DNA from: Nitrospirota bacterium
GTDB lineage: Bacteria > Nitrospirota > Thermodesulfovibrionia > Thermodesulfovibrionales > Dissulfurispiraceae
Direction of reading: 5' to 3'
Length of the DNA stretch: 64,000 nt
NCBI GenBank assembly: GCA_040754455.1
Contig: JBFMCP010000005.1
Coordinates: 32,001 to 96,000, forward strand
Position numbers and translations under genes: made by a program. Below the pieces are notes generated by a model. That model searched no databases. It had not been told where the DNA came from and was given only the letters and a program-made list of their open reading frames with translations. Shown here in pieces: positions 10,840 through 42,061 of this stretch. Positions within the stretch are counted from its first letter, which is position 1. Each line of letters opens with the position of its first letter.

Positions 10840-10955
10840 GTTCGAAATCCTAAGCACTAAATCCTAAACAAATTCAAAATTCAAATAAATTGAGAGGTTT
10901 TGAATTTTGATCATTCGGATTTGTTTCGGATTTAGGATTTCGAATTTAGAATTTG
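10840..10955. repeat. Heptamer hairpin cassette between convergent operons (probable terminator)
   Basis: ttcgaaatcctaagcactaaatcctaaacaaattcaaaattcaaat ... tttgaattttgatcattcggatttgtttcggatttaggatttcgaatttagaattt. Confidence 0.8.
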
Positions 10956-12436: not shown

Positions 12437-12444
12437 GGCTTCAC

Positions 12445-14748: not shown

Positions 14749-14750
14749 GA

Positions 14751-15104
14751 TTATTTCCCTCCCTGCGTGTGGAACTTGCCGGTCACCGCATGCGCATCAT
14801 GGCACAAGAAACAATCTCTCACCTTCGGCGGCAGTTTCTTCTCCACATCCACAACCTTTTCTCCATGGCAGCCGCGGCATCTGTAGATGTCGGGCTTCGC
14901 CATGAAGTTCTTGTCCGTTGAACCGTGGCATACCACACACTTTACATTCATCAGTCCGTGTTTGCCGTCCTGCCACACCTGTGTCTGTGTCCCGTGGCAT
15001 TCATAACACTCCTGATCCTCAGGTGTCTTTATGTGCTTTTTCTCCTTTGCGGGAACAGCGACCGGCAGGATAAGGATCAGGATGAGCACTATAAGTTTTT
15101 TCAT
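14751..15104 (-). CDS. Periplasmic tetraheme cytochrome c (NapM-like)
   Basis: Sec signal plus four CxxCH motifs (CYECH, CVVCH, CRGCH, CFLCH), immediately upstream of napA. Confidence 0.85.
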   Translation of the reverse strand: MKKLIVLILILILPVAVPAKEKKHIKTPEDQECYECHGTQTQVWQDGKHGLMNVKCVVCHGSTDKNFMAKPDIYRCRGCHGEKVVDVEKKLPPKVRDCFLCHDAHAVTGKFHTQGGK

Positions 15105-15175
15105 AAAACCCCCTCGGAATTGCACCACAGAGAGCACAGCGCGTTGCTCCATGCTCTCCGTGGTCAGGTCGTTAA

Positions 15176-16849: not shown

Positions 16850-16949
16850 TGCTTCCCTCCTCATCCTGTGTTTTAAAAAGTGCCTTTCCCCTCGAAATGA
16901 GTGGTCCATACCGACTCCCCGTACATTTAAAATTTTCAACAACCTGACT

Positions 16950-17011
16950 ACATGGTACTTACAAATCAGGTAAATTTCACATTAATCCGCGTAAATTTTT
17001 TGTAAATTTTG
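16950..17011 (-). promoter_or_regulatory. Candidate OmpR-type tandem direct-repeat site and promoter upstream of the onr-nap operon
   Basis: GTAAATTT at 16970, 16991 and 17002 (21- and 11-bp spacing); TACCAT -10-like hexamer downstream on the minus strand. Confidence 0.5.
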
Positions 17012-17108
17012 AGGGGAAGGAGAACGTGCAGAAAGCATAGGCAGCAGGAGCAAAAAGAACTGCACTATTCATAGTAAAAACCCAGCGGGACCGAACTCTT
17101 CGGTGTCT

Positions 17109-17597
17109 CTAGAAAGAGGCCTCTTTCTGCTCGAGCTGAAAGCCGATCTTTCTCAACTCAGCAGCGATCATTTCGACGAACTTGCCGATGTTATTCTGAA
17201 TTTCCTCTGACATTGCGAGGCCGGTATCCATGCATTTCGGTTCGATGCCGAGAAGCACAATGTGCTTCGGCATCTTCTCGGTAAGCTGTGCTGCGGCGAG
17301 GAGGTCGGAGAGGCCGAGCTGGTGGGGAGAAATTTTACTATAGAAAAAAGCGGGGACTTCATCGCCCTCCATGCGCACGATGGTGCCGGGAGGGTTTCCG
17401 TTCTTTACGACATCAATGACAAAGACGTAATCTCTACCCTCAATGTAATGGAGAAGCTCTATTCCCATAGTGCCGCCGTCGATAACTTCGACGCCTTCGG
17501 GGATACGGTATTTCCTCTGGAACTCCTCCACCACCCGCACCCCTGCTCCCTCATCCATCAGGAGCAAATTTCCTATTCCCATTACTAAAACATTCAT
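17109..17597 (-). CDS. hybD: Hydrogenase maturation protease HyaD/HybD
   Basis: GIGNLLLMDEGAGV, DGGTMG and SPHQLGL motifs. Confidence 0.92.
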   Translation of the reverse strand: MNVLVMGIGNLLLMDEGAGVRVVEEFQRKYRIPEGVEVIDGGTMGIELLHYIEGRDYVFVIDVVKNGNPPGTIVRMEGDEVPAFFYSKISPHQLGLSDLLAAAQLTEKMPKHIVLLGIEPKCMDTGLAMSEEIQNNIGKFVEMIAAELRKIGFQLEQKEASF

Positions 17598-17645
17598 AAA
17601 TGATCACCCTTTTATAATTTAACATACGTAGGAATGACACACCCT

Positions 17646-17700
17646 TAAAAAGGGGGCAGGGCAAAGTACTGAGAAAAATTCCAAGTACCATGCCCCTCTC
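17646..17700 (-). terminator. Possible intrinsic terminator after hybC
   Basis: Minus strand GGGGCATGGTACT...AGTACTTTGCCCTGCCCCC followed by TTTTT. Confidence 0.45.
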
Positions 17701-17716
17701 AAATAATTTATACCCC

Positions 17717-19417
17717 CTAAAACGCTTTGACTTTTACGACCTCCCTCTTCTTCGCATCCACCACATGGATTGCGCACGCAAGACACGGATCGAAAGAGTG
17801 GACGGTCCTCAACACCTCGAGCGGCTTTTCGGGATCAGCGACAGGATTGCCGATAAGAGATGCCTCATAGGGGCCGAGCGCATCCCCATCGTTTCTCGGG
17901 CCGGCATTCCAGGTCGAAGGCACCACTGCCTGATAGTTTTTAATCTTCCCCTTATCGATCACCACCCAATGGGAGAGTACGCCCCTCGGCGCTTCGTGGA
18001 ATCCGAAACCTTTGATCTCCCCCTTCGGAAATTCGGGACGATTGAAGGTTGTCATATCGCCTTTTGCAATGTTATTAACCAATGCCTCCCACTGACTCTT
18101 GAGGGTCTCATACATCACCGCGCAACGCACTGCTCTCGCTGCATGGCGGCCGATGGTCGAGTGGAGCGCCGTTACCGGCACCTTAGCGCCGGCGAGGCTG
18201 CTCACTGTAGCAAGCGCTTTATCCGTATATTTCTTGGTGGGTGCATGTCCTGCGGCATACATACACAAAACATTTGCAAGCGGACCGACCTGAGCCGGCT
18301 TTCCATTAAAGCTGGGTGCCTTCACCCAGGAATACTTGCCGTTGTCCTGGAAATTGGTATAGTGCGGGATCGTCTCCTCCTCCCACGGATGGCGCGTCCA
18401 GTTGCCTTCGTACCACGAATGTTTAATGCTTTCTTTGACGCCTTTCTTGAAGGTCTCGTCCTGGAAGCTCGTGATCGGCTTGAAGCGGCCGATATCGCCG
18501 CCCTCGATGTAGCCGCCGGGATGCGCAAACACGGTTCCTCTGGAATCCATCGGGAAGTCGGGAACAGAAAGATAATTCGTTACTCCTGCGCCGTACTTGG
18601 TCCAGTCGGCATAGAAGGCGCCTACTGCACAGACATCAACAAAATAGACATTGTGTACGAAGTCGCCGATCTCATCGATGATCGATTTGATGTAGTACAG
18701 CCGCTCCATCGTCAGTGTCGAGGGGCTGTCGGGGTTGATCGGATTGGCGACGCCGCCTACTGCCAAATTCTGGATATGCGGGGTTTTGCCGCCGAGGATC
18801 GAGACGATCATGTTTGCCTTGCGCTGGTACTCGAGCGCCTGGAGGTAGTGCGCTGCAGCGAGCAGGTTGACCTCGGGCGAGAGCTTCATGGCAGGATGAC
18901 CCCAGTAGCCATTGGTAAAGATGCCGAGCTGGCCGGTGCCGACAAAGGCCTTGAGTCGGTCCTGCACCTCTTTGAAGTGCTGCGAGCTGTTCATCTTCCA
19001 TGAGGAGACGCTCTGGGCGATCTGCGCTGTCTTCCTGGGATCAGCTTTCAACGCCGAAACGATATCCACCCAGTCAAGAGCGGAGAGATGATAGAAGTGA
19101 ACAATGTGATCATGGATTGCATGAGCAGCGATAATGAGATTTCTTATATACTGTGCATTGACCGGCACCTCGAGGTTCAATGCGTTCTCGACGGCTCTTA
19201 CTGACGCAATCGCATGCACCGTGGTGCAGACACCGCAGATTCTCTGGGTAAAGAGCCATGCCTCGCGCGGGTCTCTCCCCTTGAGGATGAGCTCGATGCC
19301 GCGCCACATCTGGCCCGACGACCAGGCGTTCTTCACCACCCCGCCGTCGATCTCGCAGTCTATCCTCAAATGACCTTCTATTCTTGTTACCGGATCGATG
19401 GTTATTCTTTTTGACAT
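17717..19417 (-). CDS. hybC: [NiFe] hydrogenase large subunit, group 1 (Hyd-2/HybC type)
   Basis: DPVTRIEGH, L1 RICGVC, L2 DPCLACAIH plus C-terminal extension. Confidence 0.93.
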   Translation of the reverse strand: MSKRITIDPVTRIEGHLRIDCEIDGGVVKNAWSSGQMWRGIELILKGRDPREAWLFTQRICGVCTTVHAIASVRAVENALNLEVPVNAQYIRNLIIAAHAIHDHIVHFYHLSALDWVDIVSALKADPRKTAQIAQSVSSWKMNSSQHFKEVQDRLKAFVGTGQLGIFTNGYWGHPAMKLSPEVNLLAAAHYLQALEYQRKANMIVSILGGKTPHIQNLAVGGVANPINPDSPSTLTMERLYYIKSIIDEIGDFVHNVYFVDVCAVGAFYADWTKYGAGVTNYLSVPDFPMDSRGTVFAHPGGYIEGGDIGRFKPITSFQDETFKKGVKESIKHSWYEGNWTRHPWEEETIPHYTNFQDNGKYSWVKAPSFNGKPAQVGPLANVLCMYAAGHAPTKKYTDKALATVSSLAGAKVPVTALHSTIGRHAARAVRCAVMYETLKSQWEALVNNIAKGDMTTFNRPEFPKGEIKGFGFHEAPRGVLSHWVVIDKGKIKNYQAVVPSTWNAGPRNDGDALGPYEASLIGNPVADPEKPLEVLRTVHSFDPCLACAIHVVDAKKREVVKVKAF

Positions 19418-19438
19418 GGAATATTCCTCCTATAAAAA

Positions 19439-20575
19439 TTATGCGTGCTTCACATCTGGCAGCACCGGAAGGGTTTTGACAACTACCAGATACAACAGCA
19501 CCTCCAGCGCTATGATGCCCAAGGTTATCATTGTCTCGGAAAAGGACGGGAAATAGTGCCACCCCGGACCGGGATCGAATCCTATTAAAAACGCGTTAAA
19601 ACGGTAGACCGCTCCTGCAAGCAGCATGAGCACCGCACCGATGAAGAGCATGCGCGGCCGTTCCCTGTTGACAGGCCTGAAGAGTATTACCATAGGTGCG
19701 ATATACAATATATTTTCGATGATGAACATGAAGCTTTTTATATCCAGCCTGAGAATTGCGCCGAGCTGTCCTCTCCAGAGGAGATCGCCGAATCTGAACA
19801 CCAGATAGAGCAGGATAAGCTTGGGAATAATTGCCGAGAGCTTTGACAGCAGCGGGGTCTCCATCGGCCTCCTGAACCCGAGGGAGGAGATAATCGACTC
19901 GAACACCACAATCGCGTATCCCATCGTAATCGAAGAGATCAGGAAGAGCAGCGGGATGAAGTCGGTCTGCCACAGGGGTGAAACCTTCTGCCCCGCGATA
20001 TAGATCAGCAATCCCAGTGATGACTGGTGCATGGTCGGCAGGAGCACGCCGATGGCGATAAATGCAAAGAGGACTTTTTTCAATACCTTGAGTACCTTCT
20101 CCTTGTTCCAACGCTCAAGGAATGCGGGGGTGAATTCTATCCAGAGCACCATGATGTAGGTCGTGACGCAGAGAGCCACCTCGAACATGACCGAGTTGAG
20201 CTGTGCGTACCACGGCAGGATGAGATTATAGGCCTGCCAGTAGCGCCCTACGTCGAAAAAAATTGATACTCCCGCGAGCGTGTATCCGAACATGCTCGCA
20301 AGGATTGCAGCGCGTATGAGCGGATAATAGGTCTTCTTGTTGAACACATAGATCAGCAGTGCCATCGCATACCCGCCGCAGGCAAAGGCGGTACCCACCA
20401 CAACGTCATAGGCGATCCAGATACCCCACGGATAGCCGTCGCTCATATTGGATACCGCACCGATACCAAAGATGAATCTCTTGATGATCAGAATACCCGC
20501 AAAGAGCGCAAAAGCAGCCAGGACCAGAAAAGGCTTGGTGATGATTTTTCCTCCCAATGGCTTAAACCCTCCCAT
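19439..20575 (-). CDS. hybB: HybB, NrfD-family membrane subunit
   Basis: GYPWGIWIAYDVVVG, SVMFEVALC and LPTMHQSSLG motifs; ~10 TM. Confidence 0.92.
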   Translation of the reverse strand: MGGFKPLGGKIITKPFLVLAAFALFAGILIIKRFIFGIGAVSNMSDGYPWGIWIAYDVVVGTAFACGGYAMALLIYVFNKKTYYPLIRAAILASMFGYTLAGVSIFFDVGRYWQAYNLILPWYAQLNSVMFEVALCVTTYIMVLWIEFTPAFLERWNKEKVLKVLKKVLFAFIAIGVLLPTMHQSSLGLLIYIAGQKVSPLWQTDFIPLLFLISSITMGYAIVVFESIISSLGFRRPMETPLLSKLSAIIPKLILLYLVFRFGDLLWRGQLGAILRLDIKSFMFIIENILYIAPMVILFRPVNRERPRMLFIGAVLMLLAGAVYRFNAFLIGFDPGPGWHYFPSFSETMITLGIIALEVLLYLVVVKTLPVLPDVKHA

Positions 20576-20592
20576 ATCTCTCTCCTTTATCG

Positions 20593-21546
20593 CTACTCAT
20601 CTTTTTTTGTATTTCGATACACTGCATACAGAAGGCCGCCCAGAAGGGCAACGGGTGCGATCATTCCCTTGTAGATCGTATGCTGGAGCCCTTCCGACCG
20701 TGCTGCATCAGACACCTCCGAGAGCTTCGGCATGCCGAGCTTGTCGAAGGGCACTCCCGCGAGCATAAGGATCTGCGTGCCGCCGCCGTCCTTTTCCCCG
20801 TAAAGGTAGGGATAATACTGTTCGACAGCGCGTAACGATTTCTGGTCCGAGTTGATATGGGCCACAGGGAATTCGTACTCGTCTCCGGGTCTCAACGTCA
20901 ATCGGCGGCGTGCCTCCGCCTGCAGATCGGTGACCTTTCCGTACAGCGAGGCGCCGGTGGGACAGAACTCGCAGCATGCCGCATATTTGCCCTCTTTGAG
21001 ACGGTGCGAACAGAGCTGGCACTTCCTGATCTGCGGGAACGGTTCGTCCCATTCGAACTTCGGGATGTTGTAGGGACAGGCGACCTGGCAATATCTACAT
21101 CCGATACAGGCATCCTTGTTATAACTCACAATGCCGGTCTTCGGGTCTTTGGTCAGTGCCGAGACCGGACAGGCCGAAACGCAGGAAGGATCGATGCAAT
21201 GCATACACTGCCTTTTGACATAGGAGAAACCGTTCTCTTTATCTTTTTCAACTCCCGCGCCGTGCGTGTAGAGCTTGATGATGTTGAGCGTCTTTCCGGA
21301 AAGATCGAGGGGATTGTCATAAATGTTGTCCGTCGTCGAATGCTCGGGGGGCATGTTGTTGTACTGCTTGCATGCCGCAACGCAGGCCTTGCATCCGATG
21401 CAGAGGGTTGCATCATATAAAAAACCGACAGCTTCGGGAGGCAGGGCTTTGGGAGCCCTCGCTGCCAGTGCAGAAGGGACATCCGCCGCGAGCAGCAGTC
21501 CGCCATAGGCTACTCCTTTCAAGAAGTCTCGTCTCTTCATATCCAT
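20593..21546 (-). CDS. hybA: HybA periplasmic ferredoxin subunit
   Basis: Tat KRRDFLK; four Fe-S Cys clusters; YGEKDGGGTQ; C-terminal TM. Confidence 0.92.
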   Translation of the reverse strand: MDMKRRDFLKGVAYGGLLLAADVPSALAARAPKALPPEAVGFLYDATLCIGCKACVAACKQYNNMPPEHSTTDNIYDNPLDLSGKTLNIIKLYTHGAGVEKDKENGFSYVKRQCMHCIDPSCVSACPVSALTKDPKTGIVSYNKDACIGCRYCQVACPYNIPKFEWDEPFPQIRKCQLCSHRLKEGKYAACCEFCPTGASLYGKVTDLQAEARRRLTLRPGDEYEFPVAHINSDQKSLRAVEQYYPYLYGEKDGGGTQILMLAGVPFDKLGMPKLSEVSDAARSEGLQHTIYKGMIAPVALLGGLLYAVYRNTKKDE

Positions 21547-21549
21547 GGC

Positions 21550-22722
21550 CTACTTCTCCTTCTTCCTGGGGTGCTCTTCCTTCTTCTCCGCATCCCTCTC
21601 ATGCTCGCCGAGCCTCTTTGCCAGGGTAGCACCCGCTCCGATCGCAGCACCCGCAACCCCTGCCACCACAGCAGCGCCGAGCACGGTGGCGCCGCCGCCC
21701 TTCTCCTCATGAATACGGGGATAGGTCGAGGGGGGAGTAACGGTATGCAGCCTGGCGAGGGTGTGGAGCGGTGTACTGAATCCAACGCCCTTTTCAGAGC
21801 AGCCGAAGCAGGGATGGCCCGCACCGACAGGCCATGTGCCTGCACCCGTGTCGCCGAATTGCAGGGTCGAGCAGTTGTTGAAGGTCTCTGGTCCCTTGCA
21901 CCCTAGTTTGTAGAGGCAATAGCCTTTTCTATGGTTTTCATCACCGTACTGGATGGCAAATCTTCCTGCGTCGAAGTGGGGCCGCCGCTCGCAGTTCTCG
22001 TGGATAACACGGCTATAGGCGAACGTGGGCCTGCCTTTTTCATCGAGCTCGGGGAGTTTTTTGAGAGTCAGGAAGTGGATAACGGTTGAGAGTAAATTAT
22101 AGGGGTTCGGAGGGCATCCGGGAATCGTGACAACAGGTTTGCCTTTCACAAGCTCTGTTATTCCTTTTGCGCCGGTGGGGTTCGGTCCGGCAGCGGGTAT
22201 GCCACCCCAAGATGAGCAGGAGCCCATGGCGATCACCGCTGCTGCGTGCGGATAGGTTTCATTCAGAATTTCAAGGGCGGTCTTACCACCGATCTTGCAG
22301 TAGATACCTCCCTCTTTTGTTGGCACCGAGCCGTCGACCACGAGGATGAATTTGCCTTTGTTTTCCTGGATCGATTTCTGCTTCGCTGCCTCGACCTGAT
22401 GGCCTGCGGCAACGCTGAGCGTTTCGGAGTAATCGAGCGAGATGAGATCGAGAAGGAGATGCTCCAGTGTAGGATGAGTGGAGCGCAGGAGAGATTCGAC
22501 ACATCCGGTGCACTCCTGGAAAGAGAGCCAGATCACCGGCGGACGTTTGGGGTTGGTAATTGCTTCTGCGATCTTCGCCCCCATGCCGAGGGGCAATCCC
22601 ATACCGGCAGCCATGACCGTACAATACCTCAGGAAATCCCTTCGCGATATGCCGCCGAGCTTCTTTCTGACTTCAGCCTCATGCTCTTTCATAGTCTCCT
22701 CCGTCCTCTTTTCTTTGTTCAT
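21550..22722 (-). CDS. hybO: [NiFe] hydrogenase small subunit (HybO type)
   Basis: Tat SRRDFLR; ECTGC, GSCSSWGG, PGCPP, HENC, CLYKLGC and HPCFGC; C-terminal anchor. Confidence 0.93.
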   Translation of the reverse strand: MNKEKRTEETMKEHEAEVRKKLGGISRRDFLRYCTVMAAGMGLPLGMGAKIAEAITNPKRPPVIWLSFQECTGCVESLLRSTHPTLEHLLLDLISLDYSETLSVAAGHQVEAAKQKSIQENKGKFILVVDGSVPTKEGGIYCKIGGKTALEILNETYPHAAAVIAMGSCSSWGGIPAAGPNPTGAKGITELVKGKPVVTIPGCPPNPYNLLSTVIHFLTLKKLPELDEKGRPTFAYSRVIHENCERRPHFDAGRFAIQYGDENHRKGYCLYKLGCKGPETFNNCSTLQFGDTGAGTWPVGAGHPCFGCSEKGVGFSTPLHTLARLHTVTPPSTYPRIHEEKGGGATVLGAAVVAGVAGAAIGAGATLAKRLGEHERDAEKKEEHPRKKEK

Positions 22723-22765
22723 TTGCCTATGAATTCCATAATTTCAATGATTTTCTTCTTTTTCG

Positions 22766-22803
22766 TGTTATTAACATTATACTGTCAATAAATTTGTTGT
22801 CAA
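22766..22803 (-). promoter_or_regulatory. Sigma70-type promoter of the hyb operon with an overlapping dyad
   Basis: Minus strand TTGACA (22803-22798), 16 bp, TATAAT (22781-22776); TGTTA-T-TAACA dyad at 22766-22776. Confidence 0.65.
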
Positions 22804-23248: not shown

Positions 23249-23728
23249 TTACGGGTGAGAGAGCATCGGCTCCAAAGCAGTGACAAGCAAAGATACTACG
23301 CGAGGCATGGCTGCAGCCACCGCATCTGTCATTGCATCACCGAAGTGCACTACATCTTCCGCCTCTACGGCCCAGATGGCGATGTCCTCCGGAAGGTCGA
23401 ATCCCATGCGCTTTCCGGCTTCGAAGGCGCAGGCGAGTGTCGTATCGTGCATCGACGAACTATGGAGGGTTGCCGGGACGTTGCGGAGGCTCAGCCGGTA
23501 TACAGTACCGGCCGGCGCATTCCCGGTGCAGATCGCATCGATGAGGAACACCCTGTCATAGCCGATCATCTCTTCCATGAGTCTCAGTCCGCCTACGGAT
23601 AATTCCTTTATATCGATCCCCTCATGTTCCCGAACATGCTTCCTCAATTCCCGCGCAACGGCGATGCCGATGCCGTCATCACGAAGAATCGGGTTACCGA
23701 GGCCGATGATTAAGGTTTTTTTTATCAT
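23249..23728 (-). CDS. Hydrogenase maturation protease (for Mvh)
   Basis: GLGNPILRDDGIG, IDAI and SMHD motifs; follows mvhA. Confidence 0.9.
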   Translation of the reverse strand: MIKKTLIIGLGNPILRDDGIGIAVARELRKHVREHEGIDIKELSVGGLRLMEEMIGYDRVFLIDAICTGNAPAGTVYRLSLRNVPATLHSSSMHDTTLACAFEAGKRMGFDLPEDIAIWAVEAEDVVHFGDAMTDAVAAAMPRVVSLLVTALEPMLSHP

Positions 23729-23828: not shown

Positions 23829-25313
23829 TTAATATTGCGACAGCTCCCTGATTACCTCTCCTGCTTGATTACGTATTCTGACCCTGAGCGGCATCTGTCC
23901 CGGCAGCGCATGGGTTGCGCAGGAGAAGCAGGGATCGTAGAGTCTGAACGCCATCTCTATCCTGTTCAGCAGCCCCTGTTCGATGATGGTGCCCTTGCTG
24001 ATAAGGGTCTGGGCCGCCTTCTTAACGGACATCGCAATCGGCGCGTAGTTGTTGGTAGTACCGACAACGAGATTGACTTTTTGCAGGATTCCTCGCTCAT
24101 CGGTCCGGTAATGGTGCGTGAGCGTACCGCGGGGCGCCTCCACAGCGCCGACTCCTTCAACGGGTGTTTCGGTAGGAATGACACGCACATGGGGATCGGT
24201 GATTTCAGGATCGACGATCAGCTCATGCATGCGCTCCGCAGCATAGAGGAGCTCGATCAGCCGCGCCCAGTGTGTTGCGAGGCGGTAATGCACCGGCCCG
24301 TAACTGCCGTCGTCCCTTTTCGTGCCGAGCGTTGCATAGAACTGTTCGAAGGCCTCCTGTGCGCGGGGTGTGGCCATGCCCTTTGCAACATTGAGACGCG
24401 CCAGCGGCGTTGCACAATACACGCCGCTCTGAGCTCCATCGACAAAGCCCTTCCAGCCGACCGCCTTCAGATAAGGGAATTTAAGGTACGTCCAGGATTC
24501 GACACGCTCGGTAATGTGATCCCGGTAATCGCGGGGATGATAGTTCACCAATTCGTTCCCGTCGGGGTCAACAACGCGCACCCGGCCATCGTAAAAGTTG
24601 ATATAACCTCTTTCATCAACAGTGCCCATGTAATAGGTACGGTGGGTATAGGCATCGGACACCATGAGGTCATGGTACTCGGGGTTCTGCAAAACGACCG
24701 AACGGAACAGATCGAGGCTCCGGAGCGCAAAAGCGATATTCTTTTCCGCTATGAGCTGAATCTCTCTCTGCTCCTCTCCGGTGAGCGCCTTGCTCCATCC
24801 GCCCGGAAGCCCGGCGCAGGGATGGATCACTCTTCCGCCGACCAGCTGAATGGCGTGGTGGTTCCTTTTTCTGCACTCGATCACCTCTCTGCCGATATCG
24901 ATGCCGATCTTCTGCAATACGCCGAAGATATTTCGCTCGGCAGGCGGCGCATCGGGCCCCACAATGAAATCAGGTCCTCCAAGGGCATAGAAGTGGGTCG
25001 TGTGGTCGGCAACGAAGAAGGCAGAGTAGAACATCTCCCGCAGCTTCTTTGCCGCAGGAGGAGGATCGACCCTGTACAAATCATCGAGCGCCTTGGTTGA
25101 TGCTATGTGATGGGCTTCGGGACAGATGCCGCAGATGCGGCTGGTGATATTCGGCATATCCTCTGCGAGGCGTCCGACACAGAACTGCTCGAACCCCCTC
25201 AACTCGGGGACAATGAAATAGGCATTCGCTACCTCACCTTCGTCGTTGAGGAATATCTCAATCCTGCCGTGGCCTTCCAGCCTCGTCACCGGGTCAATGC
25301 TGATCTTCTTCAT
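23829..25313 (-). CDS. mvhA: [NiFe] hydrogenase large subunit, group 3c (MvhA)
   Basis: [28 protein letters not shown]2 [17 protein letters not shown] extension. Confidence 0.92.
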
Positions 25314-25319
25314 AATCGA

Positions 25320-25398
25320 TAAAGATAAAAAATCAAAAAGAAAAAAGCAAAATTAATAAATTCATTACTTTTAATCTTTTCTTTTTGCATTTTAATCT
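25320..25398. repeat. A/T-rich heptamer hairpin cassette
   Basis: taaagataaaaaatcaaaaagaaaaaagcaaaat ... acttttaatcttttctttttgcattttaatct. Confidence 0.65.
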
Positions 25399-26393
25399 CC
25401 CCTGAAGGGGTGCCGCGCCCTCTGTAGCAGCGAATGCGCCAGACTGAATTTATAAAAAGTCCCTGCCGGATCAAGAAGGGAATTGAGCGCATCTTCGATC
25501 TGCCTGCTTATCGCATCATCACCGTTCCCTTCGATATCGACCTCTACGATTGACGCCAGTGCAGAGAGCATCGCCGCGCCCTGATCGATGACGCCTTCGG
25601 CCGGCCCATAGCATCCGATGCAGGGCATGCCTGCCTTCGGACAGAGGGCTGTACAGCCGCTCCTGGTGGCTGGGCCCATGCAGACCATGCCCTGGTCGAT
25701 AAGGCAGTTCTCTTTATCCGGGATGATTTCGTGGAGGCGATAAAGCTTTCTGACCCGCTTTTCTCTTCGTAGGCGGGGACACTCTTCACAAAGGGCCTTT
25801 GCGCCTGCACCGATCACTGAACCTTTCGGAGGAAGATCACCGCCTTTCATCACCATATCTATGACCGTCTGAATCTGATGCGGTTCAGGAGGGCAGCCGG
25901 GAACCGAGTAATCCACATCAACGGTCTGCCGCAGACTTTTTACAGTGTCATGAAACGAGGGCAGATGGAGCTCCCCCTCATCGACTGTAGTAGTTACCCT
26001 GGGTGTTATCGAATAAGGATTATCGGTACTCGGATTTTCGAGATAGATGGAAGCAGCATGATCACGTGCACTCGACAGGTTCGACAATCCGGGGATACAC
26101 CCCTCATACGCGCATGAGCCGAAGGCGACGAGCAGCCTCGATTTTGCTCTGAGCAGACGGGCCATTGCCACGTCATCATCATTACGGATAGCGCCGTTGA
26201 AAAAGGTGAGCGCTATAGCACCATCGGAAAGCGCTTCCACATCGCTTCGCTTGCCGTCCATGACACAGGGCCAGAAGACCGGCTCGAAGACAGTAGCAAA
26301 ATCGAGTAGCTCCTCATGTATGCCGAGGAGCGCGATCTCGCACCCGCCGCAGGCAGAGGCCCAGTACATAGCGAATTTCGAACGTTCCTGCAT
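25392..26393 (-). CDS. mvhG: MvhG hydrogenase small subunit
   Basis: YWASACGGCE, GSCAYEGCIPG, PGCPP, CEEC, CMGPATRSGC and PCIGCYGP; ATG overlaps the mvhD stop. Confidence 0.92.
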   Translation of the reverse strand: MQERSKFAMYWASACGGCEIALLGIHEELLDFATVFEPVFWPCVMDGKRSDVEALSDGAIALTFFNGAIRNDDDVAMARLLRAKSRLLVAFGSCAYEGCIPGLSNLSSARDHAASIYLENPSTDNPYSITPRVTTTVDEGELHLPSFHDTVKSLRQTVDVDYSVPGCPPEPHQIQTVIDMVMKGGDLPPKGSVIGAGAKALCEECPRLRREKRVRKLYRLHEIIPDKENCLIDQGMVCMGPATRSGCTALCPKAGMPCIGCYGPAEGVIDQGAAMLSALASIVEVDIEGNGDDAISRQIEDALNSLLDPAGTFYKFSLAHSLLQRARHPFRGD

Positions 26394-26827
26394 CACTGCC
26401 TCCTCCCGCTGATCACCTGAGGCCACTGCAGCGGTCCCAGTGCCCGCAATGCCGCAGTCATCCTGTTTATCTTTTCTGAAAGAGCAGCTCCCTCTGAAGC
26501 AGAGACCCAGGCAAGCTGTATGCGCTCGCGCTCGATGCCGAACTGTCCGGCAAGATTTCGTACGAGATGAAAGCGTCCGAGGGTTCTTATATTGCCTGCC
26601 TCATAGTGGCATTCGCCGGGATGGCATCCGGCAATGAGAACGCCGTCCGCTCCCTCCCGCAGTGCCTTGAGCACCAGCTGCGGCTCGACTCTTCCGCTGC
26701 ACATGACCCTGATGATGCGGAGGTTCGGAGCAGAATGGAGACGCAGCGTGCCGGCGCGGTCCGCTGCGCGGTAGGCGCACCAGTTGCAGAAGAAACCGAC
26801 AATAACAGGCTCGAAAGAATTAATCAT
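26393..26827 (-). CDS. mvhD: MvhD/FlpD [2Fe-2S] subunit
   Basis: FFCNWCAY, RVMCSGRV, GCHPGECHY and WVSASEG motifs. Confidence 0.95.
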   Translation of the reverse strand: MINSFEPVIVGFFCNWCAYRAADRAGTLRLHSAPNLRIIRVMCSGRVEPQLVLKALREGADGVLIAGCHPGECHYEAGNIRTLGRFHLVRNLAGQFGIERERIQLAWVSASEGAALSEKINRMTAALRALGPLQWPQVISGRRQ

Positions 26828-27011: not shown

Positions 27012-28994
27012 TCATATCTTCCTGTCTCGATCATATAATATGCCTTCGATCTCCGCCATCATCTGTTCGTCGGTAAAGTGATCACTGGTGATCGCCCTGG
27101 CAGGGCACGCAGCCACACAGGCGCCGCACCCCTGGCAGAGGGCAGCATCGATGTCCGCCTGATTGCTCTTCTCATTCATAGAAAGAGCACTATAGGGACA
27201 AAGATCAAGGCACATCCGGCATCCGCTGCACCGCTCCTTGTCGATGCTCGCCCGTATCGGCTCGAGCTCGATAGTCCCTTTATTAATAAGAGAAAGGATC
27301 TTTGCTGCAGCAGCGCCTGCCTGTGCAATGGTCTCGGTTATATCCTTCGGTCCCTGGCAGGCTCCTGCTACGAATATCCCCTCGCGCAGGGTAACGACCG
27401 GATCGAGCTTGGGATGCTTCTCTGCAAAGAATCCCTCGCTGTCGCATTCAACACCGAGCAGCCGGGCAACAGAGCGTGCATCGGCCCTCGCTTCCATGGC
27501 GGTGCTCAATACCACCATGTCCACGGGGATACGCCGCTGGATGCCGAGCAGTGTATCCTCAGCCTGGATGACGAGCTTGCCTTCTTCTTCAGGATAATAT
27601 GCCGAGTCCATAACAGTCGCCACCCGTCCCCTGACGAAATGGATCTTTTCACCCAGGAGCTTCTGGTAGAACTCCTCATAGGTCTTCCCCCCTGCCCTCA
27701 TGTCGATGTAAAAATTGTAGACAGAAGCCCCGGTCTTCTCCTTTATAAGGTGGGCGAACTTCAGCGAGTACATACAGCAGACCTTTGAACAATAATCGTG
27801 GTAGTTCTTATCGCGGCTCCCGACGCAATGGATAATCGCAACACTTTCAGGCTCGGCGACCCGGTCTCTGAGCATGACCTTTCCGCCGGTAGGCCCGGCA
27901 GCGCTCAGCATACGTTCAAGCTCGATACCAGTAAACACATTGGGGTATCTGCCGTACCCGTACTGCGGGATCCGCAGGGGATCAAAAAGATCAAAGCCCG
28001 TCGCAATAACGATATTCCCCACCGTAAGGGTAAGCGTTGTATCGCTCTGGTCGAACCGGACCGCCTGGGCAGGACACTCTTTCTCGCAGATCCTGCACTG
28101 GCCCAATTCGAAAAAGGAGCAGATGTTCCGGTCGATTACCGGATAACGGGGGACCGCGCCGGCAAAGGGAATGGCGCATGCCTTCCGCAAACCGAGTCCT
28201 GCCTCGAAATCGTTATCGTGCACCTCCTGCGGGCACTTCTGCTGGCAGATGCCGCATCCTATGCAACGGTCCTCGTCGATAAAGCGTGCCTTCTTTCTCA
28301 CTTTTATAGTGAAGCTGCCTGCCCTCCCCTTCGCTTCCTCAACCTCGCTATACGTCAGGAGCGTTATATGCGGGTGCCGGCGTACTGCTGCCATGCGCGG
28401 ATCGAGCATGCAGTCGGCGCAATCGAGGGTAGGAAAAGTCTTATCGAGCTGTGCCATGCGGCCACCGATACTCGGTGCCCTCTCCACCAGATAGACCTGC
28501 CTGCCCGCATCGGCTATCTCGAGTGCCGCCGTGATGCCGGCGATGCCTCCTCCGATGACAAGCGTATCAGGATTGACCGGCACCGATATCTTCGACAGAG
28601 GTTTGTGATGCAGGACCCGATGGACAGCAGCCGAGACCAGTGCCTTGGCCTTCTCGGTCGCAGCCGCCGTGTCGCCGGCAGTCCATGCATCATGCTCCCG
28701 CACATTGACGATCTCGCAAAAGTAGGGGTTCAATCCCGCCCGTGCACAGGCCTTCCTGAAGGTTGGTTCGTGCAGATGCGGCGAGCAGGCGACGATGACA
28801 ATACGGGAGAGACTGTTCTCCTTGATATCACGCTCGATCAACCCCTGCCCGTCGCCTGAACACATGAAACGGTCATCTCGGACAACAACGACATTGCCCA
28901 GCGTCGATGCAAAAGATGCGAGGGCTTTGATATCGAGACCCTCGGCGATATTCGTCCCGCAATGGCAGAGATAGACGCCTATCCTCTCACTCAT
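27012..28994 (-). CDS. hdrA: Heterodisulfide reductase subunit A (FAD, Fe-S)
   Basis: IGVYLCHCGTNI, IGGGIAG, KTFPTLDC, HCVGSRD..YCSKVCCMYSLK, AGACQGPKDI and C-terminal 2x[4Fe-4S]. Confidence 0.95.
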   Translation of the reverse strand: MSERIGVYLCHCGTNIAEGLDIKALASFASTLGNVVVVRDDRFMCSGDGQGLIERDIKENSLSRIVIVACSPHLHEPTFRKACARAGLNPYFCEIVNVREHDAWTAGDTAAATEKAKALVSAAVHRVLHHKPLSKISVPVNPDTLVIGGGIAGITAALEIADAGRQVYLVERAPSIGGRMAQLDKTFPTLDCADCMLDPRMAAVRRHPHITLLTYSEVEEAKGRAGSFTIKVRKKARFIDEDRCIGCGICQQKCPQEVHDNDFEAGLGLRKACAIPFAGAVPRYPVIDRNICSFFELGQCRICEKECPAQAVRFDQSDTTLTLTVGNIVIATGFDLFDPLRIPQYGYGRYPNVFTGIELERMLSAAGPTGGKVMLRDRVAEPESVAIIHCVGSRDKNYHDYCSKVCCMYSLKFAHLIKEKTGASVYNFYIDMRAGGKTYEEFYQKLLGEKIHFVRGRVATVMDSAYYPEEEGKLVIQAEDTLLGIQRRIPVDMVVLSTAMEARADARSVARLLGVECDSEGFFAEKHPKLDPVVTLREGIFVAGACQGPKDITETIAQAGAAAAKILSLINKGTIELEPIRASIDKERCSGCRMCLDLCPYSALSMNEKSNQADIDAALCQGCGACVAACPARAITSDHFTDEQMMAEIEGILYDRDRKI

Positions 28995-29910
28995 TCTTTG
29001 TCCTCATCCGTTTTTTCGGCTCTTTTGTTTCAGGGCGCCCTACTTTCATTTTCGTGAGCACCGGTTCAGCGGAAACAATCTCTTTTCCGATGCCGAGGAC
29101 AAGCGGGTCAAGCCCGAAGGCCAGTCCCATGAGCTGGGTAAAGAAGAGGACAGGGATGTTGAAATGAGTATTAAAATGCTTATTCACATCATCCTGGTAG
29201 GCGTCGAGATTGATCTGGCATACCGGACAGAGGACCGCAATGGCGTCCGCTCCGCTCTTCTGAGCGCTCTTCAGTATCCTGCGCAGGAGCTCGTAGGCGG
29301 TGATCGCTTTTATATGGGGCATATGTCCGCCGCAGCAGTTCGATTTCATCGAGAATTCGGCCACTGTTGCGCCGAGTGCAGTGAGGATTCTATCCATAGA
29401 GGTCGGATGCTCGGGATGGTCGAACCCGTCACCCGGCCTCGTCAGCATACATCCGTAGAACGGGGCGATGCGCAGATTGCTGAGAGAGGTAGTCACTTTG
29501 GTGAAGAGTGCATCCACTCCCACATCGTTGAGAAAGATGTCGAGGAAATGGCGAATCCTGAGCACGCCAGGATTGTAGTGAAGTCCGCCTTCAGCAAGGG
29601 CGTCATTGACCGCCTCATTGATGTCAGGATGCTCATGCATCACCTTATCGGTCCTCCGCAGATTCGAAAAACAGAGGCTACAGGAGGTAATCACCTGGCT
29701 ATGCCCCTGAGGGACCAGAGCCAGGTTGCGCGCCGAGAGCGCGTAGTGGGCAAGACGGTTGATCGAGAGATACTCCGTAGCACCGCAGCAGTTCCAGTCG
29801 GGGATGTCGGTCAGCTCGATATTGAACAGCTCCATCACCGCTCTGGCCGACTGCGTGTAGGCTGCAGCCATGTGCTCTGAGGAGCAGCAGGGGAAAAGGG
29901 CGTATCTCAC
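28987..29910 (-). CDS. hdrB: Heterodisulfide reductase subunit B (CCG domains)
   Basis: DWNCCGA, SCSLCFSNL, FYGCMLTRP, NCCGGH and CPVCQINLD motifs. Confidence 0.93.
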   Translation of the reverse strand: MRYALFPCCSSEHMAAAYTQSARAVMELFNIELTDIPDWNCCGATEYLSINRLAHYALSARNLALVPQGHSQVITSCSLCFSNLRRTDKVMHEHPDINEAVNDALAEGGLHYNPGVLRIRHFLDIFLNDVGVDALFTKVTTSLSNLRIAPFYGCMLTRPGDGFDHPEHPTSMDRILTALGATVAEFSMKSNCCGGHMPHIKAITAYELLRRILKSAQKSGADAIAVLCPVCQINLDAYQDDVNKHFNTHFNIPVLFFTQLMGLAFGLDPLVLGIGKEIVSAEPVLTKMKVGRPETKEPKKRMRTKNE

Positions 29911-30836
29911 GGTTTTCTTTCTCTCTCTTTAGCCTTGTTCACAATACGTCGCAGTTGCTCAATACCCTCGATCTTCGAGGGACCCAGGACGATCCGCTCC
30001 TTTTTGTAGAGTTTCAGTGCCAGCGAACCCCAGGAATGCCGGTCGGCGGGATTATGGTCCAGACGGTAGCGCATGGCGAGACCGAAATCGAAGCTGCGGC
30101 CGTACTTCTCGATGAGATTGATAAATGTCTTCGAGAAGTCATAGGCATCGGTGATCTTGACAATCCCCTCGCGCACTGCCATTTGCTTGAGGGTGTACAT
30201 GATATCGGTGATTGGGATCTGCTGGGGACATCGCACGGTGCAGTAATAGCAGGAGACGCAGAACCATGGAGTATTGCTCAAAAGGACCTCCTGCTTCAGC
30301 CCGGCCAGCAGCATGGCAAAGAGGTGGCGCGGCGTGTAATCCATGTCTTCGGCAGAAGGGCACGAGCCGCCGCATGTTCCACATTGCAGGCACCTCGTGA
30401 GCGTGCTCCCCTCCGGCGTTTCAGCCATAACCGCCTCCAGAAAGCTGCGGCCCTCTGTGGTTTCCCTATCCATCGCAATCCGCAGCCGTTCGCTTTTTTT
30501 CCTGAAGGGATTGTCGATCTGGTCAGCCCCGCTGACGAGCCGCTCTTTCTCGGCAGACACATCTTCCTGGTACATCTGAAAGGTCTCTTTTATTTCAACG
30601 AGATTGAACCCCTTGCTCTTGAGCGCGAAGATCCACTTTATTGTCTCGATAACGCTCTGGGGATAGAAGAATTTGACGCCGCCCGTACCCTGCCCTTTTC
30701 TGATCCCCTTGGGAAGCAGGCCCGACTGCACATAAAATTGGAAAGTCCTCTTGGTGAGCTTGTACCCCTCATCAGAGAGCAGTCTGATAATCTCGTCGAG
30801 CGTATAAAAAGGGATGGCATCCAAAGATGTTTCCAT
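29907..30836 (-). CDS. hdrC: Fusion of a MerR-type HTH DNA-binding domain and heterodisulfide reductase subunit C
   Basis: N-terminal YTLDEI...LTKRTFQFYVQSGLLPKG...FFYP...IKWIFALKSKGFNLVEIK (MerR pattern); C-terminal CLQCGTCGGSCP...DYTPR...WFCVSCYYCTVRCPQ (HdrC); one uninterrupted ORF. Confidence 0.88.
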   Translation of the reverse strand: METSLDAIPFYTLDEIIRLLSDEGYKLTKRTFQFYVQSGLLPKGIRKGQGTGGVKFFYPQSVIETIKWIFALKSKGFNLVEIKETFQMYQEDVSAEKERLVSGADQIDNPFRKKSERLRIAMDRETTEGRSFLEAVMAETPEGSTLTRCLQCGTCGGSCPSAEDMDYTPRHLFAMLLAGLKQEVLLSNTPWFCVSCYYCTVRCPQQIPITDIMYTLKQMAVREGIVKITDAYDFSKTFINLIEKYGRSFDFGLAMRYRLDHNPADRHSWGSLALKLYKKERIVLGPSKIEGIEQLRRIVNKAKERERKP

Positions 30837-30841
30837 CACTA

Positions 30842-30872
30842 TATATATACTGTTAGTAACAGCATCTGTCAA
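30842..30872 (-). promoter_or_regulatory. Promoter with a dyad operator in the -35/-10 spacer
   Basis: TTGACA (30872-30867); ATGCTGTTA-C-TAACAGTAT dyad at 30847-30865; TATATA at 17- or 19-bp spacing. Confidence 0.65.
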
Positions 30873-30937
30873 GGAAAAAACACCATGGCGTGTAAAAAAG
30901 TAATATGACTTGCTGATTCAACATATTTTTTCGATAG

Positions 30938-39358: not shown

Positions 39359-41332
39359 GTGAGTGCAGCAACAGCAGCAAAAAAACAGTCCACCCTTCTC
39401 GAAAAAATTGCTCTCCTCGGCAATCCGAATGTAGGGAAGAGTGTGATATTCGGTTTACTTACTGGCAAATACGTCACCGTCTCCAACTACCCCGGCACCA
39501 CGGTGGAAATAACCCAGGGGAACATCTCGCTCAACGGCAAACGGCTGGTGCTCATAGACACGCCCGGCGTAAACAGCCTCATCCCCATGAGCGAGGATGA
39601 AAAAGTGACCCGGGACATCCTTCTGCACCAGTCGCCCTCTGCCGTCGTGCAGGTCGGTGATGCAAAAAACCTGAAAAGAACCCTGCTCATCACGCTCCAG
39701 CTTGCCGAAATGGACATCCCCGTGCTCCTCGATCTGAATATGATTGATGAGGCCATGGACAGGGGAATCACGATCGACACCGAAAAACTCAAGCACCTCC
39801 TCGGCATCGATGTCGTCACGACCATAGCTCCCCAGCGGAAAGGAATAAAGGAGCTCAAGGAGGCCATGCTCTCTCCCAAACGACCTTCGATCCGGATACG
39901 CTATGCCCCGATTGTCGAGGAGTACATCGAAAAAATTGCCGCCCTCCTCCCTGTAGTCCCTATTTCAAAGCGCTCTCTCGCGCTCATGATCCTCGCGGAA
40001 GATGAGAGCCTCAGAGATTGGCTCAAGGCGAATCTCAAGGAAAATGTCCTCCTCGAGATCGAACAGCTGCGTGATGAATGCAAACTGCACATGAGGGAGT
40101 CGATCGGCTATCTCATCAATAAAACACGTTTCGAGGCAGCTGAAGAAATCGCCGCTGCCTGTATGATGAAAGCAGGCGCACAGGGAGGAAAACTCCTCAA
40201 CGTCATCGGCAAATACAGCATGCATCCTGTCTATGGCATCCCGATCCTGCTTGCAGTGCTCTATGCGATCTATCAGTTCGTCGGCGTCTTCGGTGCGGGG
40301 ACTTTGGTCGATTTCGTTGAAGAGACTATTTTCAACGGCTATATCAATCCCATGCTCACCAAGGTTGTCCATCTCCTTATCCCTGTTCCGATTATACAGG
40401 AGCTGCTCGTCGGCGAATACGGTCTCATCACGGTGGCGCTCACCTATGCTATTGCGATCATTCTTCCTATTACGGCAACGTTCTTCATCGCTTTTTCGAT
40501 TCTTGAGGACAGCGGCTATCTCCCGCGGCTGGCGATCATGAGCAACAGGGTATTCAATATCATGGGACTGAACGGCAAGGCCGTCCTGCCGATGATTTTG
40601 GGACTCGGCTGCGGCACCATGGCGGTGATGACCTCGCGAATACTCGAAACCACGAGAGACAGAGTCATTACTACATTCCTCCTTGCCCTCGCCATTCCCT
40701 GCTCTGCACAACTGGGAGTGATCCTCGGCATACTCGGCGCACTGTCGCTCAAGGCCGCTGTCATATGGACTGCGAGCATCATTATCATTCTTCTGATCTC
40801 CGGATTCCTCGCTTCAAAAATCGTGAAGGGGGAGAGGACGGAGTTTTTTCTCGAGATACCCCCTATCAGAATGCCTAACGTAACCAATATCCTGGTCAAG
40901 ACCGTCGGAAGAATCGAATGGTATCTGAAAGAGGCGGTCCCCCTCTTTATTTTGGGGACGCTCATCCTCTTTTTGCTGCATAAGTTGAATCTCCTCGCTG
41001 TTCTCGAGAGGATCACCTCGCCGGCCGTCGTCGGTCTCCTCGATCTGCCTCCAAAAACTGCCGAATCTTTCATCCTCGGATTTCTCCGGAGGGACTACGG
41101 TGCAGCTGGCCTCTTCAAGATGGCGCAGGAAGGAGAACTGACTGCAGTACAGTCGATCGTGAGTCTCGTAACGATAACGCTCTTTATTCCCTGCCTCGCC
41201 AACTTCTTCATGATCATCAAAGAGCGTGGGCTGAAGACAACGCTCTGGGTTGTAGGAATCGTCTTTCCCACGGCGTTTCTGTTCGGCGGACTGCTGAACT
41301 GGGCGCTCCGGTACTTTAATGTTGCGCTTTAA
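39359..41332 (+). CDS. feoB: Ferrous iron transporter FeoB (copy 1)
   Basis: GNPNVGKS, NYPGTTVE, DTPG, LEDSGYLPR, GLGC and IPCSAQL. Confidence 0.93.
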   Translation: MSAATAAKKQSTLLEKIALLGNPNVGKSVIFGLLTGKYVTVSNYPGTTVEITQGNISLNGKRLVLIDTPGVNSLIPMSEDEKVTRDILLHQSPSAVVQVGDAKNLKRTLLITLQLAEMDIPVLLDLNMIDEAMDRGITIDTEKLKHLLGIDVVTTIAPQRKGIKELKEAMLSPKRPSIRIRYAPIVEEYIEKIAALLPVVPISKRSLALMILAEDESLRDWLKANLKENVLLEIEQLRDECKLHMRESIGYLINKTRFEAAEEIAAACMMKAGAQGGKLLNVIGKYSMHPVYGIPILLAVLYAIYQFVGVFGAGTLVDFVEETIFNGYINPMLTKVVHLLIPVPIIQELLVGEYGLITVALTYAIAIILPITATFFIAFSILEDSGYLPRLAIMSNRVFNIMGLNGKAVLPMILGLGCGTMAVMTSRILETTRDRVITTFLLALAIPCSAQLGVILGILGALSLKAAVIWTASIIIILLISGFLASKIVKGERTEFFLEIPPIRMPNVTNILVKTVGRIEWYLKEAVPLFILGTLILFLLHKLNLLAVLERITSPAVVGLLDLPPKTAESFILGFLRRDYGAAGLFKMAQEGELTAVQSIVSLVTITLFIPCLANFFMIIKERGLKTTLWVVGIVFPTAFLFGGLLNWALRYFNVAL

Positions 41333-41351
41333 CGCGATGAGGTGATCCACC

Positions 41352-41774
41352 ATGGCAAAAGAAAAGTTCAAAGAGTTCCTCTGCACAAAAGGGCTCAAAT
41401 CAACGAAAGAGCGTGATGAAATCATCAATGAAATAATGGGCATGAAAGGGCATTTTGATCCCGATGAACTCTTCACCAAATTGAAGACAAAGGGATCAAA
41501 AGTCTCCCGGGCTTCCGTATATCGGACCATCCCACTGCTCGTCGAATGCGGGCTTATAGAACAAGTGGAAAGAACCGATAAGCACGCCCATTATGAAATC
41601 GTCTCGGGCAAATCGCATCACGACCATATGATCTGCCTCAAATGCGGTAAAGTCATAGAATTCTATTCCCCTACTCTCGAGATGCTGCAGGACGAGCTGT
41701 GTCACAAGGAGAAATTCAAAAAGGTGCGGCATAACCTCGAGATCTTTGGCTACTGCAGCAAGTGCGGCGGGTAA
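41352..41774 (+). CDS. fur: Fur family transcriptional regulator
   Basis: SRASVYRTI, HHDHMICLKCG and GYCSKC. Confidence 0.88.
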   Translation: MAKEKFKEFLCTKGLKSTKERDEIINEIMGMKGHFDPDELFTKLKTKGSKVSRASVYRTIPLLVECGLIEQVERTDKHAHYEIVSGKSHHDHMICLKCGKVIEFYSPTLEMLQDELCHKEKFKKVRHNLEIFGYCSKCGG

Positions 41775-41821
41775 TCATAACTCGCGATGAAAGGCCTCAC
41801 AAATCATAACATCTGTCATCC

Positions 41822-41953
41822 TCAATCCTTTTTGTGGCACATCCCAGAATCACATCCCTGACAATACCCTTTTTTCTTCCATACCGCGCGGTAGAGGAGA
41901 TACACCGCGCCGCTCAAAATCACTACCATCCATATGATATCCGCAAAACTCAT
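41822..41953 (-). CDS. FeoB-associated Cys-rich small membrane protein
   Basis: 43 aa; TM followed by KKKGYCQGCDSGMCH; downstream of feoB; GGAGG SD. Confidence 0.8.
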   Translation of the reverse strand: MSFADIIWMVVILSGAVYLLYRAVWKKKGYCQGCDSGMCHKKD

Positions 41954-42061
41954 GATGACCTCCTTTAGACTTAAATTGTGAAGCGCCAGAGCAAGGCATT
42001 TTGGGGGAAGGTAGCCTTTACCCCGGATCTTCACACTCGATAACGCACTTGGCTTGTAACG

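Follow-up and report, generated by a model that had tools for sequence, protein, structure and literature searches.

Hdr/Mvh-type complexes, which contain heterodisulfide reductase (Hdr) subunits, have a central place in the flavin-based electron bifurcation of methanogens, sulfate reducers, and sulfur disproportionators, and little is known about how bacteria set the level of these complexes. Control of an operon by its own product is exemplified by PutA, a trigger enzyme in which a redox enzyme and the DNA-binding regulator of its own operon share one chain, with a ribbon–helix–helix domain and a flavin. In Methanosarcina barkeri, the helix-turn-helix (HTH) protein HdrR binds the hdr operon promoter and controls hdrBCA (PMC11218639). 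GlnR and TnrA are MerR-like winged HTH (wHTH) proteins without a coiled coil that act at optimally spaced promoters and whose DNA binding is set by an enzyme (PMC4335299). The genome of Thermosulfurimonas dismutans contains an hdrCBA-mvhDGA operon (TDIS_0910-0915), and the term MerR has no occurrence in the accessible portion of the paper that describes it (PMC4911364). Here, we analyze an operon of the same gene order in a 64,000-nucleotide stretch of DNA from a Nitrospirota bacterium of the family Dissulfurispiraceae (contig JBFMCP010000005.1, positions 32,001 to 96,000; hereafter the window). The first gene of this hdrCBA-mvhDGA operon encodes a MerR-type wHTH fused to HdrC. We estimate the probability that the fusion is a DNA-binding autoregulator at about one half; that it binds DNA, where it binds, whether it represses or activates, and to what it responds are all inferred.

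The MerR–HdrC fusion and its conservation

The fusion gene occupies 29907..30836 on the minus strand and encodes 309 residues plus a stop, with an ATG at 30836 and a TGA at 29907-29909. The preliminary description of this DNA, which left the strand unstated, had seen a MerR HTH, a charged linker, and a complete HdrC in one 309-residue open reading frame (ORF). This is borne out, and the three parts are a MerR-type wHTH (30579..30809, codons 10-86), a charged, disordered linker (30447..30578, codons 87-130), and an HdrC domain (29910..30446, codons 131-309), all on the minus strand. On paper, the mechanical ORF list offers a longer start, a TTG at 30872. This start is doubtful, since a TTGACA -35 box begins at that very TTG, and P0003, a database protein 99% identical to the window fusion, is also 309 residues long.

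The assignment of the N-terminal domain is based on Pfam, an AlphaFold model, Foldseek, and a conserved motif. MerR_1 (PF13411) matches residues 26-87 with 26.4 bits (E 7.5e-6) against a cut-off of 21.6, which is the outcome of the profile scan suggested in the preliminary description. The same profile scores 23.0 and 28.2 bits in two related loci, L001 and L002, respectively; these two, both from Nitrospirota, were retrieved with a single N-terminal query and have 68-74% identity in this domain. In the whole-protein AlphaFold2 model (predicted template modeling score (pTM) 0.45), residues 11-90 have block values of the predicted local distance difference test (pLDDT) of 82-96, with 90-96 given for the wHTH itself, and residues 1-100 modeled alone reach a mean pLDDT of 86.3 and a pTM of 0.72. 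The predicted topology comprises a short strand, helices at residues 13-22 and 29-37, a two-stranded wing at 45-59, a helix at 60-74, and a further helix beginning at residue 79.

Comparison of the N-domain model with the PDB by Foldseek returned almost only wHTH domains of the MerR superfamily (probability 0.98-1.00, query TM-score (TMq) 0.52-0.66), including MtaN, GlnR, CvkR, HiNmlR, TnrA, CadR, CueR, and BmrR. Among the DNA-bound MerR-family domains matched, CadR superposes on the model with a root mean square deviation of 1.4 Å over 80 columns, and GlnR/TnrA structures (4r4e, 4r22, 4r24, and 7tea) are among the best matches, with a target TM-score (TMt) of 0.69-0.76. The Foldseek E-values are modest (0.017 upward), as is usual for a small domain, and PDB matches by sequence only are weak (MerR 4ua1, E 0.22; GlnR 7tea, E 0.78).

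The recognition helix and wing are defined by the motif [KR]RTF.YYVQ.GLLPKG.R.G...GGV.F.YP, which is found in all 27 fusions of the Nitrospirota type and in 11 of the 12 of the Thermosulfurimonas type described below; the twelfth carries an L-to-I replacement. Conserved basic residues in this region are R30, K43, and R46. Both the alignment and the model show a domain without the C-terminal coiled coil of MerR proteins, with no conserved column in the linker after residue 86. Residues 1-9 are unstructured in the model, of low confidence, and unconserved, and no extra N-terminal helix α1' is predicted.

An exhaustive HMMER search with residues 1-95 yielded 136 representatives at E ≤ 0.001, 7 of them at ≤ 1e-10. 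The nearest relatives are predominantly MerR_1 proteins (45 of the first 50 scanned with Pfam), and P0125 alone among these 50 also has Fer4. A ferredoxin Cys motif occurs only in P0123 and P0125 among the 135 representatives not already known. P0123 leaves the frame inside the HdrC part and, judged by eye, looks like a frameshifted fusion. The same N-domain subtype (35-45% identity) is also present in proteins of about 250-320 residues whose C-terminal parts have no Pfam match (P0128, P0131-P0133, P0139, and others). In the ESM Atlas, proteins of Thermodesulfobacteriota and Nitrospinota combine MerR_1-like domains with guanylate-cyclase or receiver domains.

In the whole-protein model, linker residues 97-118 have a pLDDT below 50. 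Across the 27 Nitrospirota-type fusions the linker spans 17-47 residues, is rich in S, A, E, G, and P, and contains no conserved column. The HdrC domain that follows contains two [4Fe-4S] motifs of the form CxxCxxCxxxCP (30357-30392 and 30225-30260, minus strand), beginning at C149 and C193. Both motifs, with all eight cluster cysteines, are present in 39 of 39 fusions. The NCBIfam HdrC model TIGR03290 matches residues 147-228 with 90 bits (E 1.2e-25), below its equivalog cut-off of 160. Solved HdrC chains match this half by sequence at E ~1e-19, and the top seven Foldseek matches of the whole-protein model are HdrC chains (probability 1.00). By sequence and fold, the C-terminal half clearly belongs to the HdrC family, and not as an equivalog of the methanogen enzyme. 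The L001 fusion (L001 5983-6990) is 335 residues long, with about 26 extra charged C-terminal residues relative to the window protein.

The TGA of the fusion gene overlaps the GTG start of hdrB (28987-29910, minus strand; two CCG domains) as GTGA, and translation of the two genes is coupled. The fusion hdrC is likewise encoded with hdrB and hdrA in L001 and L002. The hdrC/hdrB overlap is of the GTGA/ATGA type. Scans of long window ORFs, 11 with Pfam and, of 55 picked, 46 with NCBIfam, found no second hdrC, in agreement with the earlier statement that this is the only hdrC of the operon.

A protein search in a collection clustered at 90% identity gave 3747 proteins at E ≤ 0.001. Among the best 120 of these, at least 27 clusters are fusions (P0003-P0026 and P0028-P0030), with a length of 279-340 residues and 49-99% identity over at least 94% of the query. 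Precomputed PF13411 annotation is present on 24 of these 27 Nitrospirota-type fusions. Their source names include Nitrospirota, Dissulfurispiraceae, and 'Proteobacteria bacterium', and the taxonomy of the fusions is based on these few names and the two related loci. When the window protein is aligned with 26 of them and 4 plain HdrC, strong conservation of the N-domain gives way to a stretch without any conserved column (residues 87-129) and then to a conserved HdrC part in which all Cys columns are invariant.

A second lineage, reached via P0125, comprises 12 clusters of 257-264 residues with a very short linker. It includes the cultured T. dismutans, Thermosulfurimonas sp. F29, and T. marina; the T. 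marina fusion, annotated as 'MerR family transcriptional regulator', is encoded on a contig of 1.76 Mb, and the T. dismutans fusion probably corresponds to TDIS_0910. Identity between the two lineages is 42-57% in the N-domain and about 33-42% in the HdrC half, and the HdrC halves of the Thermosulfurimonas type are equally distant from the other fusions and from plain HdrC. The near-invariance of the recognition helix and wing in both lineages, set against this divergence of the HdrC halves, makes the N-domain the more constrained half of the protein.

In a FastTree phylogeny of the HdrC part, computed without bootstrap from 121 rows (28 fusions and 93 plain HdrC), 90 plain sequences lie on one side of a branch with support 92, and 27 fusions and 3 plain rows lie on the other side. 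P0125 is on a long branch. The distribution of the fusion requires a minimum of 3 state changes, against 25 in shuffles. The plain rows nested among the fusions are P0027, which derives from a 996-bp contig, P0031, and P0032; the last two may be losses, splits, or mis-called starts. As judged from these sequence comparisons, the fusion is a conserved architecture in two bacterial phyla.

The preliminary description had considered this architecture undescribed. For the literature this stands, as a search covering few subscription journals found no published description of a MerR–HdrC fusion. It does not hold for automatic annotation, where one protein from JGI is named 'heterodisulfide reductase subunit C/DNA-binding transcriptional MerR regulator'; in the published Thermosulfurimonas genomes the architecture is unremarked.

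The promoter palindrome and the proposed role of the N-terminal domain

Upstream of the fusion gene, on the minus strand, we read a -35 box, TTGACA (30867..30872), and a -10 box, TATATA (30844..30849), separated by a 17-bp spacer. This spacer contains a 13-bp palindrome, CTGTTA-C-TAACAG (30850..30862), a candidate operator. The window promoter reads TTGACA gatg CTGTTAcTAACAG TATATA tatagtg ATG. That of L001 reads TTGACA tctt aTGTTAaTAACAG TATACT and is followed by a 43-nt leader with a second copy of the palindrome, CAGTTAaTAACAG (L001 5954-5966), while that of L002 reads TTGCAT tgg CTGTTAaTAACAG tt TATACT cttgga ATG. When the three upstream regions are aligned by eye on the -35 box, the L001 box is the same as that of the window, and TATACT of L001 and L002 falls at the place of the window -10 box. 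The spacer measures 17 bp in the window and L001 and 18 bp in L002, and in all three it is occupied by a 6-1-6 palindrome, CTGTTA-N-TAACAG. The region 30840-30880, put forward in the preliminary description for an electrophoretic mobility shift assay, contains this conserved palindrome within the core promoter.

In a pattern search, the palindrome has no mismatch in the window and L002 and one mismatch in each of the two L001 copies. Apart from the flanks, the only variable positions are the centre base and, in both L001 copies, the outermost bases of the left arm. At least one match with at most one mismatch arose in 16 (window), 15 (L001), and 10 (L002) of 20000 mononucleotide shuffles of the respective upstream region. 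The longest word common to the upstream regions of L001 and L002 is the palindrome itself, TGTTAATAACAGT, and a word as long was shared in 1 of 1000 shuffles; for the window and L001 it is TAACAGTATA (35 of 1000). The window and L002 have no exact common word beyond chance because the centre base differs. The gene order is hdrCBA-mvhDGA in the window and mvhGA, promoter, then hdrCBA-mvhD in L001 and L002, and despite this change the palindrome stays at the promoter of the fusion gene.

The ATG follows the -10 box by 7 nt in the window (30834-30849) and by 6 nt in L002 (5963-5979), in both cases without a Shine-Dalgarno sequence. This arrangement suggests that the operon mRNA is probably leaderless in these two loci. 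Just upstream of the hdr promoter of L002, positions 5897-5930 contain direct repeats of ACTGTCAATT and an overlapping palindrome, TGTCAATTG/CAATTGTCA, which may be another binding site.

We propose that the HdrC half is a working subunit, a two-cluster ferredoxin-like component of the H2-oxidizing Mvh-Hdr complex. That the fusion protein is an HdrC, that its gene is coupled in translation to hdrB, and that the ORFs scanned include no other hdrC all indicate that it is part of this complex. A flexible N-terminal tether would connect the HdrC half to a minimal wHTH of the MerR superfamily, without a coiled coil as in GlnR/TnrA. Since both its DNA-reading surface and the promoter palindrome are conserved, this wHTH most likely binds CTGTTA-N-TAACAG in the -35/-10 spacer of its own operon, and the subunit would thus exert feedback on how strongly hdrCBA-mvhD(GA) is transcribed. 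Repression by occlusion is the likeliest output and is favored over MerR-type activation, as for GlnR, because the spacer of 17-18 bp is already optimal and the site would lie under RNA polymerase (PMC4335299).

The disordered linker, with no fixed length, argues against rigid allostery as the mode of control. Control would be exerted via the amount of DNA-competent subunit, through the balance of unassembled or nascent HdrC versus HdrC locked in the complex, or through the pairing of two HTHs. As both known dimerization devices are missing, this pairing, and hence DNA affinity, should depend on the state of HdrC (free, nascent, or assembled). Within the autoregulator reading, we favor repression by the free or nascent subunit.

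Several observations weigh against DNA-binding autoregulation. The N-domain has neither the MerR coiled coil nor the N-terminal dimerization helix of TnrA/GlnR for the pairing of two HTHs. The three loci compared are all from Nitrospirota, and shared ancestry may inflate the apparent conservation of the palindrome. The palindrome is shorter, at 13 bp, than typical MerR operators, and it could belong to another factor; to our knowledge, none of the LexA-, Fur-, Rex-, and FNR-type boxes fits. Its right arm, TAACAG, abuts the -10 box, and the motif may belong in part to the promoter, because ACAG/ATAG+TATAAT is also found at the neighboring hydrogenase (hyb) promoters. The window -10 box, TATATA, lacks the conserved final T and was missed by the automatic promoter scan on account of the A at position 6. 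The 17-bp site of TnrA/GlnR is also longer than the palindrome (PMC4335299).

A further point is that the MerR-like fold can serve protein binding. The fold matches include, with a probability of 0.98-0.99, CbpM (3ucs), whose MerR-like fold is bound to the J-domain of CbpA. The N-domain may therefore have ceased to bind DNA and act as a CbpM-like protein–protein module through which the Hdr-Mvh complex would dock to a partner, or which would aid its assembly, the palindrome being the site of another regulator. The lack of the MerR and TnrA dimerization devices would suit such a module, and a protein interface would predict equally strong conservation. However, the conservation, which extends to Arg/Lys residues, falls on the recognition helix and wing, and the nearest relatives of the domain scanned are MerR_1 proteins in 45 of 50 cases. 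In addition, the palindrome is located at the fusion's own promoter in three of the three loci examined. We consider a purely protein-binding role rather unlikely.

The analogy with SoxR drawn in the preliminary description fares less well. In this view, redox sensing by the HdrC clusters would alter the conformation of the MerR domain, and transcription would be activated through untwisting of the promoter. A MerR-type domain and Fe-S clusters are indeed combined in one chain, the spacer holds an operator-like palindrome, as it does in MerR systems, and the run TATATATATA permits a 19-bp spacer register, possible in the window only. However, there is no coiled coil, and the linker of 17-47 residues, unconserved and with a pLDDT below 50, provides no rigid path from the clusters to the HTH, which argues that the redox state of the clusters is not passed mechanically as in SoxR. 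L001 has a clean TTGACA-17-TATACT promoter and L002 an 18-bp spacer, whereas MerR-type distortion needs 19-20 bp (PMC4335299). A SoxR-like mechanism is thus improbable.

The gene might also give two products, a long form acting as regulator and a short form, started within the linker, acting as the real Hdr subunit. Met123 of the window protein is close to where plain HdrC begin, and P0007-P0009 have a Met at a similar place. Yet any linker Met is present in only 12 of the 27 fusions, at positions that are not shared, and by eye there is no clear Shine-Dalgarno sequence before Met123. The internal MDRETT start considered earlier is accordingly not conserved, and we regard the existence of two products as very improbable. 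That merR and hdrC were joined only by an error of assembly, a frameshift error, or the loss of a stop in a single case can in practice be ruled out despite the plain HdrC that nest among the fusions (P0027, P0031, and P0032) and the short N-domain-only proteins P0124 and P0126, because the architecture is shared by 39 independent clusters (27 + 12) from many assemblies, including complete or large genomes of cultured Thermosulfurimonas isolates, while P0027 comes from a minute contig and P0123, and perhaps P0124, looks by eye like a frameshifted fusion.

Returning to autoregulation by the fused subunit, we tentatively suggest a more specific scheme, in which the electron-bifurcating Hdr/Mvh complex would signal its state of assembly, or its Fe-S status, directly to the promoter of its operon via cis repression by the nascent wHTH. 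Translated first from a probably leaderless operon, the wHTH would leave the ribosome beside its own promoter and repress in cis. Repression would end once the HdrC half gains its clusters and is captured by HdrB, the product of the overlapping next gene. If true, this 'subunit-as-regulator' control would be of a new class among Fe-S respiratory complexes, and it might extend to the neighboring uptake hydrogenase.

Autoregulation would constitute a compact feedback device by which transcription would respond to complex assembly or to iron-sulfur supply. It can be tested directly, with the architecture occurring in cultured Thermosulfurimonas species and the predicted operator being a defined 13-bp sequence.

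Operon context and a possible hydrogenase regulon

Downstream of hdrB, the Pfam scan of the window ORFs identifies, all on the minus strand, hdrA (27012-28994), mvhD (26393-26827; FlpD, E 4e-48), mvhG for the [NiFe] hydrogenase small subunit (25392-26426), mvhA for the large subunit (23829-25313), and a hydrogenase maturation protease gene (23249-23728). The divergent argS gene is located upstream of the fusion gene and starts at 30975. A scan of the window with Rfam gave no match.

The maturation protease gene is followed by a hybOABCD-type uptake hydrogenase and then by nrfA-, napA-, and napH-like genes, so that a Hyb-type hydrogenase adjoins nrfA-like, napA-like, and napH-like genes at 10946-22722. 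By analogy, the host may couple H2 oxidation to nitrate/nitrite ammonification; a similar coupling has been described for T. dismutans (PMC4911364). At 39359-44320, about 10 kb from the Fe-S-rich Hdr/Mvh operon, an iron-uptake island contains a fur-family regulator gene (41352-41774) between two feoB genes.

The hyb promoter (22776-22803, minus strand) is a perfect consensus, TTGACA-16-TATAAT. A weak second candidate site, the 5-1-5 palindrome aTGTTAaTAACAc (22765..22777, minus strand), lies over its -10/+1 region and has the same half-sites as the hdr operator candidate. The homologous hyb promoters of L001 and L002 contain weaker sites, located in the spacer instead, and the position is not conserved. 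With up to two mismatches, the palindrome pattern has 4 matches where 0.89 are expected, a number reached in 2 of 100 shuffles. These matches lend weak support to a possible shared H2 regulon comprising the hdr and hyb promoters.

Comparison with known systems

The C-terminal half of the fusion resembles the HdrC subunit of the MvhAGD-HdrABC complex (5odc/5odh, 8rvu, and 7bkb) in its two Cys motifs, its fold, and its hdrB/hdrA/mvhDGA neighbors. Solved and plain HdrC have about 184-192 residues, begin where the linker of the fusion ends, and contain no DNA-binding domain. Considering the bacterial host and the Nap/Nrf-type genes nearby, the disulfide substrate is presumably not CoM-S-S-CoB. HdrR also acts on an hdr promoter, but it is a separate protein, an archaeal activator that is not fused to an Hdr subunit (PMC11218639).

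With the canonical MerR family (MerR, SoxR, CueR, CadR, BmrR, and MtaN), the fusion shares the wHTH fold and profile and the palindrome between the -35 and -10 boxes. In contrast to these proteins, it has no coiled-coil dimerization helix and no effector domain packed on the wHTH, and its promoters have spacers of 17-18 bp instead of 19-20 bp.

TnrA and GlnR share with the fusion a minimal wHTH without coiled coil, a flexible C-terminal sensor part tied to an enzyme, and optimal promoter spacing. The half-sites TGTTA/TAACA fit their 17-bp site, TGTNAN7TNACA (PMC4335299), but are 1 bp apart and not 7. TnrA and GlnR dimerize through an extra helix α1' of 11-20 residues (PMC4335299), where the fusion has only about nine unconserved residues. 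Furthermore, the enzyme is a separate partner in TnrA/GlnR, whereas in the fusion an enzyme subunit is covalently joined.

By analogy of function, the fusion most resembles trigger enzymes such as PutA and the circuit of glutamine synthetase (GS) with GlnR/TnrA. The architecture and the promoter palindrome are compatible with a trigger enzyme, and, if the proposed role is true, an Fe-S electron-transfer subunit would join this short list of enzyme/regulator hybrids. It would differ from PutA in that a MerR-type wHTH is carried by an Fe-S electron-transfer subunit of a multi-subunit complex, with a putative dual role.

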